Below are positions 3,194 to 63,646 of a stretch of DNA of 64,000 nucleotides, piece after piece. The stretch lies in assembly GCA_041906505.1 (NCBI GenBank), contig JAYRJB010000008.1, positions 136,053-200,052 on the forward strand, written 5' to 3'. Both the position numbers and the translations under genes were made by a program. The DNA comes from Candidatus Saccharimonadales bacterium. Lineage in GTDB: Bacteria > Patescibacteriota > Saccharimonadia > Saccharimonadales > 2-12-FULL-41-12. The notes beneath the pieces are model-generated. The model was not told where the DNA came from and did no database searches. It was given only the letters and a program-made list of their open reading frames with translations. Position 1 is the stretch's first letter; every line of letters begins with the position of its first letter.

Positions 3194-4921
3194 ATGTCGT
3201 TAATGAGAATGCTAAACACTTGGCAAAAACACACTGTGATTGTTGTGGGTGCTGTTATAGCTATGAGCATACTATGTTACAGCCCTAAGGCTGAGGCGGC
3301 GTCAACAAGCCTTAGTGCGCAAGGGAAGGTGAGTTTTACCTTTGACGACGGTTATAAAAGCGCGCTCACAAAGGCTGCACCCACTCTAAACGAGAGCGGC
3401 ATTAGCGGCACAAGCTATGTGACTACCAACTTTATTGGCAGTTCGGCAGAATACATGACGTGGGCAGATGTAGCGCAACTTTCTACTACATATGGCTGGG
3501 AAATTGGCGGGCATAGCGTAACGCATCCACTATCAACACAGATTACGCCCCAACAAATTGAGCTTGAAGCTGCAAACTGCAAGCAGACTCTTATTCAGCA
3601 TGGCTTTACACCGACCAGCTATGCAACGCCGTTTGGTGACTACAACGGCCAGGTTATTGAGGCAATCGCTCGACATTACACCTCTCATAGGCCTTTTCAT
3701 GACAAGGGTTACAATGTCTGGCCCTATTCAGACTATCTACTACAAGTTCAACAGGTGCAGTCTGGCGTTAGTGTCCAAACTGTAAAGAGTTACGTTGATT
3801 CAGCAAAGCAAAATAACACATGGCTCATCTTGGTATTCCATGACATAAAAGATGTACCAAGTTCTGACCCACAAGATTATGAATACAGCACCAATGATCT
3901 AAGATCCATAGCGCAGTATGTGAAGTCACTCAATATGCCCACCCCGAATGTGACCGCTGGACTTGTAAATAACGACACAAACTTGCTACCAAATTCGACC
4001 TTTAATCAAGGACAAGCCGGGTGGACGACTGACGCGCCAAGCAACGTAAGTGTTAATACGCAGTCAAAGGGAAGCTCACCAGACGCGACGAACAGCTTGG
4101 CTGTTACCTCAACAACACAGAATATTCATATCCACTCTGATCAAGTGTCGGTAAAGCCAACCGAAACCTACGTTCTGAAGGGGTTTTTAAACGCGAGCAC
4201 TATCCAGGGTGGAGAAGTTGCGTTCTATATTGATGAGTACAATCTAAGTGGTTCTTGGATATCCGGCATATATCTGGGCGCAGTAACAAACGACTACACA
4301 AAAAGCCTCAATGTCGCATACAAGCCAAGTAGTGTTGGCGTATATACCTCAAGCCTTCAAGTGATTATTACCGCAAATTCAAATGCGAAACTGTACATTG
4401 ATAACGTAAGGTGGTTTTCGACGTCAGCCAACTCACCGACACCACCGCCAGCACCACCGGCACCAAGTCCAAATCTTTTACCAAACGCATCGTTCGACGC
4501 CGGAATCACGCAAGGTTGGACTACAGACTCAGCTACCAACGTAGTACTTGATCAGCTAAACAACGGTGGCACTACAAAGCAAAACTCCATCAAGCTGACT
4601 TCATCAACAACGAAGAATGTTCACCTACTCTCGCCAAAGGTTACTGTAGACGCCACAAAAACATACAACTTTAAGGCATACACGAACGTAAAAACCCGTA
4701 CCAGTGGGGCCTTAGCGTTTTACGTTGATGAATATGATGCTTTCGGAAACTGGATTTCTGGAAAGTACATCTATGAGAAAAGAAACAAAGGGGTACAGAC
4801 CATCAGTTTTGCCTACAAACCGACCTCCTCAAACGTAAAGAACGCGAGTATTCAAGTAATAGTTACGAAGGGATCTGGCATTACTGCGTATCTAGACGAC
4901 GCGCACTTTGCTGCTGCTTAA
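3194..4921 (+). CDS. secreted/anchored polysaccharide deacetylase (NodB domain) with two C-terminal CBM4_9-like carbohydrate-binding repeats
   Basis: N-terminal signal/TM. NodB motifs FTFDDGY and GGHSVTHP. Two homologous ~140-aa modules (NLLPNSTFNQGQAGWTTD... and NLLPNASFDAGITQGWTTD...) are separated by the Pro-rich linker SPTPPPAPPAPSP. Confidence 0.8.
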   Translation: MSLMRMLNTWQKHTVIVVGAVIAMSILCYSPKAEAASTSLSAQGKVSFTFDDGYKSALTKAAPTLNESGISGTSYVTTNFIGSSAEYMTWADVAQLSTTYGWEIGGHSVTHPLSTQITPQQIELEAANCKQTLIQHGFTPTSYATPFGDYNGQVIEAIARHYTSHRPFHDKGYNVWPYSDYLLQVQQVQSGVSVQTVKSYVDSAKQNNTWLILVFHDIKDVPSSDPQDYEYSTNDLRSIAQYVKSLNMPTPNVTAGLVNNDTNLLPNSTFNQGQAGWTTDAPSNVSVNTQSKGSSPDATNSLAVTSTTQNIHIHSDQVSVKPTETYVLKGFLNASTIQGGEVAFYIDEYNLSGSWISGIYLGAVTNDYTKSLNVAYKPSSVGVYTSSLQVIITANSNAKLYIDNVRWFSTSANSPTPPPAPPAPSPNLLPNASFDAGITQGWTTDSATNVVLDQLNNGGTTKQNSIKLTSSTTKNVHLLSPKVTVDATKTYNFKAYTNVKTRTSGALAFYVDEYDAFGNWISGKYIYEKRNKGVQTISFAYKPTSSNVKNASIQVIVTKGSGITAYLDDAHFAAA

Positions 4922-49646: not shown

Positions 49647-50870
<1,224 letters not shown>

Positions 50871-60750: not shown

Positions 60751-61854
60751 CTATCGGCTAGGGGCCTGTGTTCCTCCTTGACGCGTCGATGAGCTGTTGT
60801 TCTTCTTCAGATCAACACCTTGCTTCGTTTCGACTTTTTTTGCTTGAGCCGTTCCTTTGTAACTCTTCTTTACTTCGGCGCGGACTGCTTCTTTGACCTT
60901 CTTGGACGCCTCATACATTTGCTTTATCTGGGCTTTGGTAGCCTTAAGGTTGCCAACTTTAGTTGCAAAGTAAGCTTTTGTAGCAGCCGGGCTTGCAGTT
61001 GATGGAATTTGGTTAATTTCGTCAATGGTTATCGCCTTAAGTACACCATTGGTTGTGTCGAGACTTTTCAGTACTGGCGTGACGTCGGGCAGATTCTTCA
61101 CTTGTGCCATCGCCGCTTTGTTGGCTACTTGATTAGCCTTAGTCAATACCGAAAGCTTGGTCGCAACTTGGTTGCTTACATCGACAAGCGCAAGGTTTAG
61201 GTATGAGTTGTCAATACTCTGCTGGTTGAGCCAACGCTGCCACTGATAGGTCTGCATTCTCGTTTTCCAAACTGCAGCACAGGCTGCTTCGGCGGCCTTT
61301 TGCTGTGAGTCTGCAGCTTTTAAATCAGCCTGGCTTTTTGTAAGTACAGTTTTTGCATTTGCTACTACGGCCTTCATGTCTTTCTTGTCGGTTTCGAGTC
61401 GAGTGACATAGTTTGAAACGTCGACAGTTGCTGGAGCAGCGACACCACCTGTTGGCTGAGGAACTTTGGCTGTTTCTTGTTTGATCAGCTTATCGGCTTC
61501 GGCTTTATGCTTGTTAAGTGCATCAATTTTAACTTTATAAAATTTTTCTATTGATACATCGTTACCAAACTTACTGCCTTCACCCGATTTGCTTTTGAAA
61601 TTAATACTACTAAGACGTCCCTTGATTCGGTTTTCGCCATATGCCTTAATTTTTTCGAGTGACGCGGTTTGCACGCCAGCAACGCAGTCGGCCTCACTTT
61701 TGAATGTTACTGAAATCCCTTGATCGGTCGAACTTGGGGCAGCAGTGCCGCCAGTTGTAGCCGCGCGAACAGTTACTGGAACCGCCAAAACGGACAAAGA
61801 AAATACCGTGCCTATACCAAATAAACTAATTTGCTTTAAGTGATTCTTATTCAT
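60751..61854 (-). CDS. secreted helical/coiled-coil hypothetical protein
   Basis: ATG at 61854 (MNKNHLKQISLFGIGTVFSLSVLAVPVTVRA, a signal peptide) overlaps the upstream stop in ATGAATAA. Ala/Lys/Gln-rich helical body. Confidence 0.5.
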   Translation of the reverse strand: MNKNHLKQISLFGIGTVFSLSVLAVPVTVRAATTGGTAAPSSTDQGISVTFKSEADCVAGVQTASLEKIKAYGENRIKGRLSSINFKSKSGEGSKFGNDVSIEKFYKVKIDALNKHKAEADKLIKQETAKVPQPTGGVAAPATVDVSNYVTRLETDKKDMKAVVANAKTVLTKSQADLKAADSQQKAAEAACAAVWKTRMQTYQWQRWLNQQSIDNSYLNLALVDVSNQVATKLSVLTKANQVANKAAMAQVKNLPDVTPVLKSLDTTNGVLKAITIDEINQIPSTASPAATKAYFATKVGNLKATKAQIKQMYEASKKVKEAVRAEVKKSYKGTAQAKKVETKQGVDLKKNNSSSTRQGGTQAPSR

Positions 61855-62137
61855 TGCTGGCCTCCGAAGCGTTTGTCGACGCGTCACTTTGTGCACTTAC
61901 GTCTTTATCTGAATTTTCGATACTCTTTTCGAGTGCTTTCGAGCTATCGTCGTATGACTTGTCAGAATCTTCGTCTGATGCAGCCTTTTGAGTTGTTGCA
62001 ACGCTATCACTTTTGTTGTTTTGGCTCGTTACGCGATACGCCGCAAAGCCCGCCACCCCAATAACGACAAGGGCAACTAGGATTAATCCAAGATGGGCAA
62101 CACCATGCTCAGAGTTTACTAATTTGCTTTTTGACAT
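61847..62137 (-). CDS. small membrane-anchored acidic protein
   Basis: N-terminal TM (LGLILVALVVIGVAGFAAY) followed by a Ser/Asp/Glu-rich tail. Translationally coupled to the downstream gene. Confidence 0.45.
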   Translation of the reverse strand: MSKSKLVNSEHGVAHLGLILVALVVIGVAGFAAYRVTSQNNKSDSVATTQKAASDEDSDKSYDDSSKALEKSIENSDKDVSAQSDASTNASEASNE

Positions 62138-62230
62138 CTTTAACCTTTTTATTTTTTAGTTTTTTAACTACTAGCTCTGATGGTACCATAAGCCGCTTAT
62201 GCGTCAACCCCTCTTATCCACATCTTATGC

Positions 62231-62260
62231 TTGCCATGTAAGGGGATCTTAGGGTATCAT
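62231..62260 (+). promoter_or_regulatory. candidate promoter for the aromatic leader/DAHP synthase transcript
   Basis: TTGCCA (62231-62236), 18-nt spacer, TATCAT (62255-62260). The leader ATG lies 10 nt downstream. Confidence 0.4.
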
Positions 62261-62270
62261 CACCAAAGTC

Positions 62271-62345
62271 ATGAGTAACGCATACTACAGTTTCTTTTGG
62301 TTTACGAGCCCAAAGCGAGGCGGTAGTAGTTCGTTTGATCAATAA
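62271..62345 (+). CDS. 24-aa candidate attenuation leader peptide rich in aromatic codons
   Basis: My own translation is MSNAYYSFFWFTSPKRGGSSSFDQ*. Residues 5-11 are Y-Y-S-F-F-W-F. Located between the promoter-like element and a terminator upstream of DAHP synthase. Confidence 0.55.
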   Translation: MSNAYYSFFWFTSPKRGGSSSFDQ

Positions 62346-62367
62346 ATAACTAAGAAAACGACCCATA

Positions 62368-62392
62368 CACCGCCTTAAGCAGGCGGTTTTTT
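62368..62392 (+). terminator. intrinsic terminator (attenuator) upstream of DAHP synthase
   Basis: ACCGCCT-TAAGC-AGGCGGT is a 7-bp stem (62369-62375 with 62381-87) followed by TTTTT. AGGAGGA SD and ATG 62414 lie just downstream. Confidence 0.65.
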
Positions 62393-62413
62393 ATTATCTT
62401 TGCAGGAGGAGTG

Positions 62414-63646
62414 ATGTCACCAGAATCAATAGCACAATCAGACCCAATACGTGAGGCCGAACGAATAAAGGAGGCTCTCTTGAGCATTCAGCAGAGCGCT
62501 GCTGAGGTTGCCGAGCAAGCCGAACTACAGCTTCTTGAAAACGTTCGAGAACAGCTTGGCTATAAACCAACCACAAAAATAAGCGAAGACGATATTGTTG
62601 ATACCAGAATCGCGGGGAAAACCCCGGTCCTCACACCAAGAGCACTGGCTCAAGTTTTGCCGGTTACCGAAGAAAGTGCAAACACCACCCACAAAAGTCG
62701 TTCTTCTATTGAAGCCATACTTTCGAGTAAAGACGATCGCTTGGTGGCGATTGTGGGACCATGTTCGATTCACGATGCCAAAAGTGCTCTGGAATACGCT
62801 GACTGGCTTAATGGACAGCGCGAACAACACAAAGATAGCCTTGAAATCGTCATGCGGGCTTACATGGCAAAGCCAAGAACCGAACTTGGCTGGAAGGGCT
62901 TTGAATACGACCCTAGACTAGATGACTCAAACGATATTAACCTCGGAATGGTTTTGTCCAGAATGTTGTCGTGCCAAATTACAAATCAAGGCATGCCGAT
63001 CGCCATGGAGCGATTAAATGCTAATACGCCACAATACTTTAATGGGCTTGTTGCGTACGATGCGATTGGAGCCAGAAATACCACAGATCAGAAGGCACGG
63101 GAATACGCTTCTGGTACGTCCTCTCCTGTTGGCTTCAAAAACACTCCCGAAGGCAGCATCCAGGCAGCCGCCGAAGCGGTAGTAACTGCCAACGCACCAC
63201 ATGACTTTTTGGGCATGAATATCCAAGGTACTCCGATGCATGTGACGACTACAGGAAATGCTCTGGCTCATATTGTTCTTCGGGGCAGCCAAGAAGGACC
63301 AAATTATTTTCCCGCGCACGTCAATGTCGCAAAAAACATTCTTCGTGACAAAAACTTGCTCGAAGCCATACTAATTGACGCTTCGCACGCAAATAGCAGT
63401 AAGGATTTCCGAAAACAAGCTGAAGTGATTAGCAACGTTTCACAGCAAATTGCGCTCGGGGAACTAGCGATCAAGGGTGTAATGATCGAGAGTAATCTCG
63501 TAGAGGGATCTCAATCGCTCAATAGCCAAAAAGGCCTGGTTTACGGCCAAAGCATAACAGATGGGTGTGTTGGCCTTGAGGAGACAGAAAAGATGCTAAA
63601 CCTGCTATCCAACGCAGTAGATCTCCGTAGGCTTTCGGTGTCTTAA
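62414..63646 (+). CDS. aroG: 3-deoxy-7-phosphoheptulonate (DAHP) synthase, class I (AroF/G/H type) with N-terminal extension
   Basis: DDRLVAIVGPCSIHD, RAYMAKPRTELGWKG and IDASHANS match type I-alpha DAHPS. About 55 extra N-terminal residues relative to my recollection of E. coli AroG. Confidence 0.85.
   Translation: MSPESIAQSDPIREAERIKEALLSIQQSAAEVAEQAELQLLENVREQLGYKPTTKISEDDIVDTRIAGKTPVLTPRALAQVLPVTEESANTTHKSRSSIEAILSSKDDRLVAIVGPCSIHDAKSALEYADWLNGQREQHKDSLEIVMRAYMAKPRTELGWKGFEYDPRLDDSNDINLGMVLSRMLSCQITNQGMPIAMERLNANTPQYFNGLVAYDAIGARNTTDQKAREYASGTSSPVGFKNTPEGSIQAAAEAVVTANAPHDFLGMNIQGTPMHVTTTGNALAHIVLRGSQEGPNYFPAHVNVAKNILRDKNLLEAILIDASHANSSKDFRKQAEVISNVSQQIALGELAIKGVMIESNLVEGSQSLNSQKGLVYGQSITDGCVGLEETEKMLNLLSNAVDLRRLSVS

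Follow-up and report, generated by a model that had tools for sequence, protein, structure and literature searches.

According to an earlier survey, leader-peptide regulatory systems had been known mainly from Proteobacteria and Actinobacteria, to which that survey added Firmicutes (PMC2965389). In Corynebacterium glutamicum, according to the summary given in PMC11802643 (after Neshat et al. 2014), aroR, a leader with the codons Phe-Tyr-Phe, attenuates aroF, a gene for 3-deoxy-D-arabino-heptulosonate 7-phosphate (DAHP) synthase; by the same summary, the attenuation responds to phenylalanine (Phe) and not to tyrosine (Tyr), despite the Tyr codon. Leader peptides can also be encoded on leaderless transcripts, as is the ilvB leader peptide of C. 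diphtheriae (PMC5784534). Here we describe an element in a 64,000-nucleotide (nt) stretch of a Candidatus Saccharimonadales genome (contig JAYRJB010000008.1), in which a short open reading frame (ORF) and a terminator stand directly before an aroG-type gene for class-I DAHP synthase. The whole stretch is called the window below, and coordinates count from its first base. Judging by its sequence and by modelled RNA folds, the element is probably (roughly 0.8) a ribosome-mediated leader-peptide transcription attenuator of aroG, keyed to aromatic codons.

All parts of the element lie on the + strand. The leader ORF (62271-62345) has 24 codons plus a stop and encodes MSNAYYSFFWFTSPKRGGSSSFDQ, and its regulatory run Tyr5 Tyr6 Ser7 Phe8 Phe9 Trp10 Phe11 (62283-62303) comprises six aromatic codons out of seven: two Tyr, three Phe and one tryptophan (Trp). 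Both the ORF and the run are as a preliminary description of the locus had given them. Among the 1267 six-frame ORFs of at least 15 amino acids in the window, this run is the highest; ten ORFs reach five and no other reaches six. A sigma-70-type promoter (62231-62260) precedes the ORF, with TTGCCA at 62231-62236, an 18-nt spacer and TATCAT at 62255-62260, scoring 10 of 12 matches in a consensus scan. Following the ORF is an intrinsic terminator (62369-62392), also recognized in the preliminary description and borne out by folding, with the arms ACCGCCU (62369-62375) and AGGCGGU (62381-62387), the 5-nt loop UAAGC, and UUUUU at 62388-62392. The regulated gene (62404-63646) starts with the Shine-Dalgarno sequence AGGAGG (62404-62409) and an ATG at 62414, stops at 63644-63646 and encodes 410 amino acids; matches to Pfam PF00793 (3e-68) and TIGR00034 (aroFGH, 7e-117) identify the product as a class-I DAHP synthase, in line with the DAHP synthase proposed earlier. 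The distance from the U-run to this ATG is 21 nt, in which the consensus scan detected no + strand promoter-like site, and transcription of aroG must therefore pass through the terminator.

Between the promoter and the gene, the RNA offers two mutually exclusive sets of pairings. Region 1 (62280-62300; GC, UACUAC and GUUUCUUUUGG) holds the aromatic codons and is the 5' strand of an anti-antiterminator. Region 2 (62310-62330; CCAAAG-C-GAGGC-G-GUAGUAGU) includes the copy of GGCGGT at 62319-62324 that was noted previously, and its partner is either region 1 or region 3. Region 3 (62366-62376; UAC-ACCGCCUU) doubles as the terminator 5' arm and as the antiterminator partner of region 2 (62317-62328 with 62366-62376). 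The minimum-energy fold of 62262-62400 (-32 kcal/mol) holds the terminator together with both helices that the preliminary description named, UACUAC/GUAGUA (62283-88 with 62323-28) and UUUUGG/CCAAAG. Folded alone, the terminator reaches -11.2 kcal/mol, with a 7-base-pair stem containing five G-C pairs, and the 1:2 helix, region 1 with 62310-62330, gives -15.7 kcal/mol for 62280-62331. The antiterminator proposed earlier, GAGGCGGU (62317-62324) with ACCGCCUU (62369-62376), is the fold predicted when a ribosome mask lies over the aromatic codons, and a pair flanking it covaries among relatives (see below); the antiterminator fold of 62312-62380 has -19.6 kcal/mol, and the duplex of regions 2 and 3 has -16.3 kcal/mol (z = -4.7, equalled by 0 of 200 shuffles).

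Not every statistic from the window is so distinctive. The fold energy of the whole leader stands out only modestly (z = -2.1; 6 of 200 shuffles folded as well), and a simple terminator scan of the surrounding 20 kb showed no enrichment, with 24 found against 21.6 expected from shuffles, so that the significance of the terminator rests on its conservation. Both results would suit a chance ORF followed by a constitutive terminator or insulator that ends an unrelated short transcript, with aroG expressed from elsewhere. We regard this as highly improbable, the least likely of the explanations considered here. The gene upstream of the leader (61847-62137) is on the opposite strand, and a + strand terminator cannot belong to a divergent gene; the 21 nt between the U-run and the aroG ATG lack a promoter-like site; and the aromatic run is the extreme of the window's 1267 ORFs. 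In addition, 23 distinct leaders share the ORF and its reading frame, the aromatic core, and the two alternative pairings.

These leaders were found 5' of Saccharibacteria aroG in relatives whose aroG identity ranges from 43 to 89%. The relative loci (labelled L001 and so on) were fetched by aroG protein similarity only, and the sample was therefore not selected for the presence of a leader. The preliminary description had made its proposal depend on the ORF and the pairing being retained in relatives, and both are kept in all 23 leaders. A covariance model (R1) built from 17 of them recovers every leader and has exactly one site in the window, while it gave zero matches in about 140 aroG loci of other phyla. 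Its matches are confined to Saccharibacteria; besides the regions upstream of aroG, they comprise a further copy of the element in L018 and, weakly and in part, a site in L092. Four loci fetched later all carry the leader (58-94 bits). The leader is missing from L023 and L095, where aroG adjoins rpsI, and from L096, which keeps the promoter only; L094, L099 and L100 are cut by contig ends and keep the 3' part of the element.

Relatives at 88-89% aroG identity keep the promoter, the peptide MS(N/S)AYYSFFWFTS, GGCGGT and the terminator, whereas the C-terminus of the peptide diverges; their aromatic codons show synonymous changes (TAC>TAT, TTT>TTC). The more distant Saccharibacteria (aroG identity 43-68%) have leaders such as MSRLSANSNQYWFTDSSRGGYFAVFA, MSIARNSQYWFTDITDGGKFCAHA, MSAQRYNAFWFTGFSRGGKLSVSA, MSRLMYTGQFWFTDTFMWRSFTQCS, MLGSNVSYQFWFTELTRAVAA, MLRPMNTSQYWFIDA and MSSNQQNCAYWFTPYYPSGYLAVSA. 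The core of the family is an in-frame [Tyr/Phe]-Trp-Phe, with one codon each. Across the family as a whole, conservation of the aromatic run, for which the preliminary description suggested looking, extends to this [Y/F]-W-F core only, and the six-codon run is specific to the window lineage. All 23 leaders keep the codon at the Trp position (TTG in L087 and TAC in L016) in the frame set by the promoter-proximal ATG, with no intervening stop, and since the distance from the ATG is only ever 21, 27, 30 or 33 nt, every indel is a multiple of three. Together with the synonymous changes and an ATG at the predicted transcript start, this frame conservation is an indirect sign of translation. Most leaders have Tyr or Phe immediately before the Trp position, with Thr in L173 and Ala in L016; immediately after it, 22 of the 23 have Phe (Asn in L016), and the second L018 copy has Tyr.

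A core of Y/F-W-F-T conserved as peptide across relatives with 43-89% aroG identity could also mean that the peptide is itself functional, either as a TnaC-like nascent arrest peptide sensing a free aromatic amino acid within the exit tunnel or as a small trans-acting protein, so that the signal would be something other than a shortage of charged tRNA. Trans-acting leader peptides do exist, an example being peTrpL of Sinorhizobium (PMC7298713). We think this quite unlikely for the present family, in which only 3-4 residues are conserved, the N-terminus varies in both length and sequence, and the C-terminus is in different frames or truncated (L172 stops 3 codons after the Phe). Moreover, arrest on an abundant amino acid would induce biosynthesis amid plenty, which is the wrong sign for aroG and trp. 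Even the Thr codon (ACC/ACG/ACA/ACT, or AGC) falls on the ACCG strand of the 1:2 helix, and its conservation is thus explained at the level of the RNA.

The position of the promoter bears on how such a leader would be translated. Both promoter hexamers are conserved in L001-L006. Most of the distant loci have TTGACA-17-TATATT, and in 16 of the 23 leaders the ATG lies 7 nt after the -10 box, a spacing that puts the transcription start at or next to the A of the ATG, so that the leader would be translated from a leaderless mRNA. In the window, the ATG is 10 nt after the -10 box, for which we predict a 5' untranslated region of only about 0-4 nt, and inspection of the sequence revealed no Shine-Dalgarno sequence ahead of the leader ATG at 62271. 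In each case, the transcription start is inferred from the consensus promoter match. The leader promoter often has two TTGACA hexamers 10 nt apart (TTGACAnnnnTTGACA), as in L008:1312-1347, L009:1297-1332, L010:966-1001, L012:1036-1071 and L088:4814-4849. The upstream hexamer is at consensus spacing to the -10 box and the second is inside the spacer, where it could be an operator or an alternative -35 element; this doubling is absent from the window promoter.

To quantify support for the helices in the family, we used the share of paired alignment cells, compared with the share obtained when the partner strand is slid along, plus shuffles. The family terminator, ACCGCC followed by a 4-10 nt loop and GGCGGUUUUU, is present in all leaders and nearly invariant. 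Its 3:4 stem is paired in 84% of cells in the 20 aligned leaders (at most 62% when slid), and it is the sole helix that RNAalifold recovers unguided; covariation is absent, as the stem is uniform. GGCGG(U) hardly varies among the 23 leaders either, and in 22 of them the distance from the first base of the Phe codon to GGCGGU is 17-19 nt, the spacing of 15 nt scored for L007 being probably a mis-hit of the regular expression. This motif is read in all three frames, as Gly-Gly in most leaders, Trp-Arg-Ser in L088 and (Val/Arg)-Ala-Val in L090/L091, and in L172 it is found past the stop codon, so the constraint on it acts on the RNA and not on the peptide.

The antiterminator, the 2:3 helix, is paired in 80.8% of cells, compared with at most 61.5% when slid. 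A duplex of regions 2 and 3 is predicted in 23 of 23 leaders at -9 to -25 kcal/mol, with z <= -2 in 19 of the 23. Covariation between the base 5' of GGCGGU and the first position in the terminator loop (UA 7, CG 3, AU 2, UG 1; alignment A3, columns 102/164) supports the antiterminator; this loop base plays no part in the terminator itself. The flanks of the helix are extended in lineage-specific ways: GGCGGU-AGUA with UAC-ACCGCC in the window, GCGGUUAU/AUAACCGC in L174, GGCGGUUG/CAACCGCC in L090 and GUGGCGGUUU/AAACCGCCAC in L091.

The 1:2 helix is the least conserved part of the element. It is paired in 68.5% of cells, against 29-53% when slid; double-sided changes occur at four pairs, and none of the shuffles attains its covariation score. 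In most relatives, the ACCG that directly follows the Phe codon is paired with the CGGU in region 2, enclosing a short inner stem; the window lineage has a longer replacement helix, whose region 2 strand pairs with the Tyr, Phe and Trp codons. L007 forms a helix equivalent to that of the window from different bases (GCAUACU with GGUAUGC) and with a 3-nt, or one-codon, shift in register. We also considered a small hairpin, AACCA/UGGUU, whose loop holds the Tyr codon; it is paired in 80% of cells against at most 60% when slid, but 87 of 500 shuffles did as well and the changes are mostly one-sided, so it was set aside as possible only.

Constraint on the RNA would also be expected if a protein or small ligand bound the conserved UGGUUUACC or GGCGGU and so set the switch, the ORF being incidental. 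The ligand might be the operon's Trp-repressor-family protein or a TRAP-like factor: UGGUUUAC and GGCGGU show nucleotide-level conservation, UUU is the only codon used for the Phe, and a PF01371 gene follows aroG in many relatives. However, the frame from the ATG to the Trp position is kept in 23 of 23 leaders, with indels in multiples of 3 and no stops, and the window lineage keeps the element with no PF01371 gene adjacent. Rfam searches for riboswitches, T-boxes and protein-binding leaders were negative, both with E values as high as 10 allowed and, for 18 loci, at the gathering threshold, and the element is only about 120 nt long, with variable parts in which RNAalifold detects no conserved aptamer-like fold. 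Control by a bound ligand is thus improbable in our estimation, if slightly less so than a functional peptide.

The attenuator reading makes a geometric prediction, namely that the position of the ribosome should decide between the two folds. We refolded the leaders with a mask that reached 15 nt upstream and 14 nt downstream of the first base in the A-site codon, a footprint whose size is assumed and which is good to about one codon. For the window leader, the antiterminator is the minimum-energy fold with A-site codons 2-11 and the terminator from codon 12, which is to say that the fold switches at the last aromatic codon, Phe11. With region 4, the terminator 3' arm, not yet made, the boundary is at the Thr codon after the Phe in nearly all of the 20 leaders tested, and a ribosome covering region 2 allows no antiterminator to form. 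The ORF extends 13-30 nt past the start of region 2 in 22 of the 23 leaders (in the window, 24 nt beyond the start of GGCGGU), and an unstalled ribosome would therefore block region 2 while regions 3 and 4 emerge.

The elements, their conservation, the exclusive pairings, the covariation and the geometry can be read directly from the alignment and the folds; translation, stalling and the efficiency of termination would combine with them as follows. Transcription would start at the sigma-70-type promoter, a few nt before the leader ATG, and a ribosome would load at the 5' end, which is nearly leaderless. With charged tRNA-Tyr, tRNA-Phe or tRNA-Trp in short supply, the ribosome would stall within codons 5-11, with its footprint on region 1 and short of GAGGCGGU (62317-62324). 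The latter would then be free to pair with newly made ACCGCCUU (62369-62376), the terminator would be blocked, and the polymerase would read into aroG. If instead the aromatic codons were read fast, the ribosome would move over region 2, region 3 would pair with region 4, and transcription would stop in the U-run, 21 nt short of aroG. If the leader were not translated at all, region 1 would pair with region 2, and termination would again be the predicted outcome.

A number of observations count against this mechanism. Related sequences inflate the shuffle statistics, and covariation is limited to flanking pairs because the cores of the terminator and of the 2/3 duplex are almost invariant. RNAalifold fails to recover the 1:2 helix, which varies from one lineage to another and in some is weak or missing. 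The promoter argument depends on a consensus match, and the gap from the -10 box to the ATG in the window is 10 nt, not 7. Most members of the family have a single codon per aromatic amino acid, which makes a weaker sensor than the classical runs, and L087 has Leu (UUG) at the Trp position. In L011, L013, L089 and L097, the ribosome-free, full-length minimum-energy fold is the antiterminator plus a 1:4 pairing and not the terminator; when region 4 is left out, equilibrium folding often favors the antiterminator even with no stalled ribosome. For the model to work, the outcome has to be set kinetically, as in classical attenuators, with region 2 covered by the ribosome. Lastly, no other aromatic-pathway gene was detected among 40 of the larger window ORFs, so that synthesis of aromatic amino acids by this genome can only be presumed.

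The gene content around the element differs between the window and many of its relatives. In the window, aroG is followed by an alpha/beta hydrolase gene. Searching the 64 kb by tblastn with trpC/B/A/E/G and the trpR-like protein from L088/L089 detected no trp genes, and a Pfam scan of 40 larger window ORFs (all 38 of at least 190 amino acids plus two smaller) detected no other shikimate, Phe, Tyr or Trp genes. Within the window, then, aroG is an isolated pathway gene, yet it is preceded by an aromatic-codon leader. In many relatives, the leader and aroG come right after a ribosomal-protein cluster (...rplM-rpsI), and aroG is followed by a gene of the Trp-repressor family PF01371 and then by trpC-trpB-trpA-trpE-trpG-trpD(-trpF). 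From this gene order, the ancestral unit looks like an aroG-trp operon under a Tyr/Phe-Trp-Phe leader. The preliminary description, which placed the leader ahead of aroG alone, is accurate for the window lineage and does not extend to the many relatives in which the leader heads an aroG-trp operon. Other arrangements are aroG-pheA in L018, aroG then the hydrolase in the window lineage, and aroG followed by genes for an M20 peptidase and a class-Ib tRNA synthetase in L174. The PF01371 gene between aroG and trpC is found at L088:6256-7368, L089:6271-6537, L090:6282-6545, L171:7303-8415 and L173:7292-7549, and is sometimes fused to trpC.

The operon context raises a narrower question, which is nested within the attenuator reading and concerns its specificity alone: the element may effectively sense a single amino acid, either Trp, in the aroG-trp operons, or Phe, as in aroR, with the adjoining aromatic codons adding little. 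In favor of this, aroG is the first gene of a trp operon in many relatives, the Trp codon is scored as present in 22 of 23 leaders (the Trp position being TTG in L087 and TAC in L016), and aroR attenuation in C. glutamicum is, by the account in PMC11802643, unaffected by Tyr availability. On the other hand, Tyr or Phe precedes Trp in most leaders and Phe follows it in 22 of 23. The window lineage, with no trp genes beside aroG, has expanded Tyr (2) and Phe (3) and not Trp, and L087 has lost the Trp codon while keeping Tyr and Phe. Some caution is needed with all such arguments, in that UAU/UAC/UUU may be constrained as RNA (U-W-Y) and codon identity alone is therefore no proof of sensing. On balance, sensing of a single amino acid appears possible but doubtful.

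L087 deserves separate mention as a natural variant without the Trp codon. Compared with its close relative L093 (L087:4869-4985 against L093:961-1076), it has TGG>TTG at the Trp position (MLIADTYLFT... against MLIAKTYWFT...), and the genes after its aroG are of no known function and are not trp genes. We also asked whether the number of aromatic codons is tied to the presence of downstream trp genes; the window, L174 and L016 are suggestive of this, but the relation is broken by L088, which is trp-linked and has many aromatic codons, and it was rejected.

Elements of this design are not restricted to the position before aroG. L018 has a second copy at 3630-3781 (51 bits with model R1), 3' of aroG-pheA. 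In this copy, the sensor is recoded to Tyr-Trp-Tyr, with the leader MMSTHNIQTQYWYTDTSRGGLFRVFEYRDAS, and it stands ahead of a gene with its ATG at 3803, whose product gave no match in Pfam, NCBIfam, PDB sequences or a large protein database. At L092:2601-2739, a small ORF, MNKQVKILTNYGQQGAWQNSHNTRESI, overlaps the stop of a trpR-like gene and is followed by CGGGAGTC...GACTCCCGCAAGGGAGTTTTTT. The match to the model is weak (29 bits), and an upstream copy could compete with the terminator 3' arm; downstream are DUF3182 and succinylglutamate-desuccinylase-like genes. From its sequence, this may be another attenuator of the same design.

A more general proposal, on which we are evenly divided, is that the element is a phylum-wide device of Saccharibacteria, in which a leaderless leader peptide integrates three aromatic amino acids with as few as one codon each (Tyr/Phe-Trp-Phe). 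The device would govern an ancestral aroG-trp supraoperon and would be recodable with gene content, as in the Tyr-Trp-Tyr second copy and the expanded Tyr/Phe run of the window lineage.

The rest of the window is in keeping with its assignment. The nearest relatives of the aroG product are from Candidatus Saccharibacteria and Saccharimonadales genomes, and other window genes consistent with Saccharibacteria encode a phosphoketolase, acetate kinase, F-type ATPase, sortases and a tRNA-guanine transglycosylase (the last at 49647-50870). The leader region is identical in two contigs of 1.7-2.2 kb from other samples. Saccharibacteria DAHP synthases have about 55-60 extra N-terminal residues relative to the aroFGH models, matches to which begin at residue 58-63 (in the window, the extra part is encoded by 62414-62590); these residues are conserved among relatives and may form a regulatory extension. 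The divergent minus-strand gene at 61847-62137 encodes a 96-amino-acid protein with no Pfam match. On its 5' side, at 62150-62179 (minus strand), there is a weak PreQ1-I riboswitch-like match (17.6 bits against a gathering threshold of 39, E = 0.75), which consists of an A-rich tail and a 3-base-pair stem with almost no loop and is most likely due to chance.

Outside the Saccharibacteria, aromatic leaders before DAHP synthase genes are also widespread. A short ORF with at least five aromatic residues out of six, no more than 400 nt upstream of aroG, was found in 22 of 134 non-Saccharibacteria loci, compared with 1 of 134 in the reverse-complement control. Several of these are clear leader-plus-terminator units with strong terminators, and they are unrelated in sequence to the Saccharibacteria family. 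For example, a soil family has the leader M..TAAYSYFYFYAFDPGG and the terminator AAGCCCCUG...CAGGGGCUUUUUUU (AAGCCCCTG..CAGGGGCTTTTTTT), and other aromatic leaders include MGTYWYFYFSRH... (Dehalococcoidia), ...SFFYYFYFYY... (a deltaproteobacterial genome) and ...GLYYAYYF... (Latescibacterota). Aromatic leaders lie about 70-190 nt 5' of the aroG match in L117, L125, L129, L130, L133, L140, L141, L144, L146, L162, L165 and L168, and further aromatic-leader loci are L160, L085, L059, L069 and L015. Another family, of 12-13-codon ORFs of the form MIFQxQxYFWY[LF](N), combines Tyr, Phe and Trp codons 30-110 nt 5' of the aroG match. Its loci (L026, L038, L116, L126, L128, L158, L159 and L169) are on low-GC groundwater contigs and in two genomes labelled Nanoarchaeota, and they have a hairpin and no clear U-run terminator.

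The logic of attenuation is thus widespread, which makes its presence in Saccharibacteria less strange and the finding more general. Leader-peptide control of the first common aromatic step would then be no peculiarity of Corynebacterium, extending to many soil and groundwater contigs as well, and the Saccharibacteria element, on the phylum-wide reading, would be a single branch within a class of aromatic leader peptides before DAHP synthase genes that spans several phyla and is largely undescribed. Saccharibacteria and the candidate phyla radiation (CPR) are usually described as reduced symbionts that depend on hosts for amino acids, and to our knowledge almost nothing has been reported on their gene regulation. 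That an attenuator is conserved ahead of aroG, and in many genomes ahead of an entire trp operon, speaks for synthesis of aromatic amino acids in some lineages, tuned to tRNA charging. If the phylum-wide reading is right, this would be the first cis-regulatory mechanism defined for CPR/Patescibacteria, as far as our literature searches went, and it would imply that transcription and translation are coupled on leaderless mRNAs in the group. The element would also be a compact and testable read-out of leaderless translation and of that coupling in organisms that are hard to culture. For annotation, the small ORF and the terminator should be labelled as leader and attenuator, and the covariance model could seed an RNA family. 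Overall, we consider the element to be of moderate interest, which comes from the host group, the leaderless design, the link to the aroG-trp operon and the breadth of analogous elements.

It remains to compare the element with described systems. The best Rfam match to the window element is the trpB motif (RF04312), which shares with it a hairpin followed by a terminator and a name referring to trp. Membership was rejected at 24.1 bits against a gathering threshold of 59 (E = 0.67), as the match consists of a generic terminator and a short hairpin, and the same was concluded for Phe_leader (RF01859; 18.7 bits against 55, E = 2.3). Trp_leader (RF00513), T-box and riboswitch families gave no match on the element at E up to 10 in a search of 61900-62700, and no family reached its gathering threshold on the element in 18 related loci. 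Our literature searches, whose coverage was incomplete and which are weak evidence of absence, found no report of attenuators or leader peptides in Patescibacteria/Saccharibacteria; equally incomplete searches for shikimate or tryptophan synthesis in Saccharibacteria found nothing useful.

In its architecture, the element resembles the enterobacterial trpL and pheL leaders (RF00513, RF01859), which likewise have a leader ORF with regulatory codons, 2:3 and 3:4 hairpins, and a terminator before the first gene; the 1:2 hairpin of their four-region logic has a counterpart that is predicted in the window and is variable, and in places weak, among relatives. It differs from them in being leaderless, or nearly so, and not dependent on a Shine-Dalgarno sequence, in an ORF that usually runs through region 2 where theirs stops ahead of it, in having one codon each for three amino acids in place of a run for one, and in controlling an enzyme of the common pathway. 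The leaderless polycysteine upstream ORFs of mycobacteria (bioRxiv 10.1101/834739) are similar in that a short ORF at the 5' end of the transcript has codons that match the product of the pathway, and different in that they sense Cys.

The mechanism is therefore a known one and not mechanistically new, whereas the host group is new for it as far as the literature searches went. The preliminary description had noted that such control is not that of the model aroF/G/H genes; this stands for the model genes, but attenuation of a DAHP synthase gene as such has a precedent in aroR-aroF of C. glutamicum (PMC11802643). By analogy, aroR-aroF is also the closest functional precedent for the element. 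As summarized in that source, both have a short mixed-aromatic leader ORF directly 5' of the DAHP synthase gene, and in both stalling raises, or would raise, read-through. They are found in different phyla, Actinobacteria as against Saccharibacteria/CPR, and aroR, from the same description, lacks the Trp codon that is present in the [Y/F]-W-F core of Saccharibacteria. Many of the Saccharibacteria operons also continue into trpCBAEGD, and the likeness between the two systems, taken from that description, is one of functional analogy.

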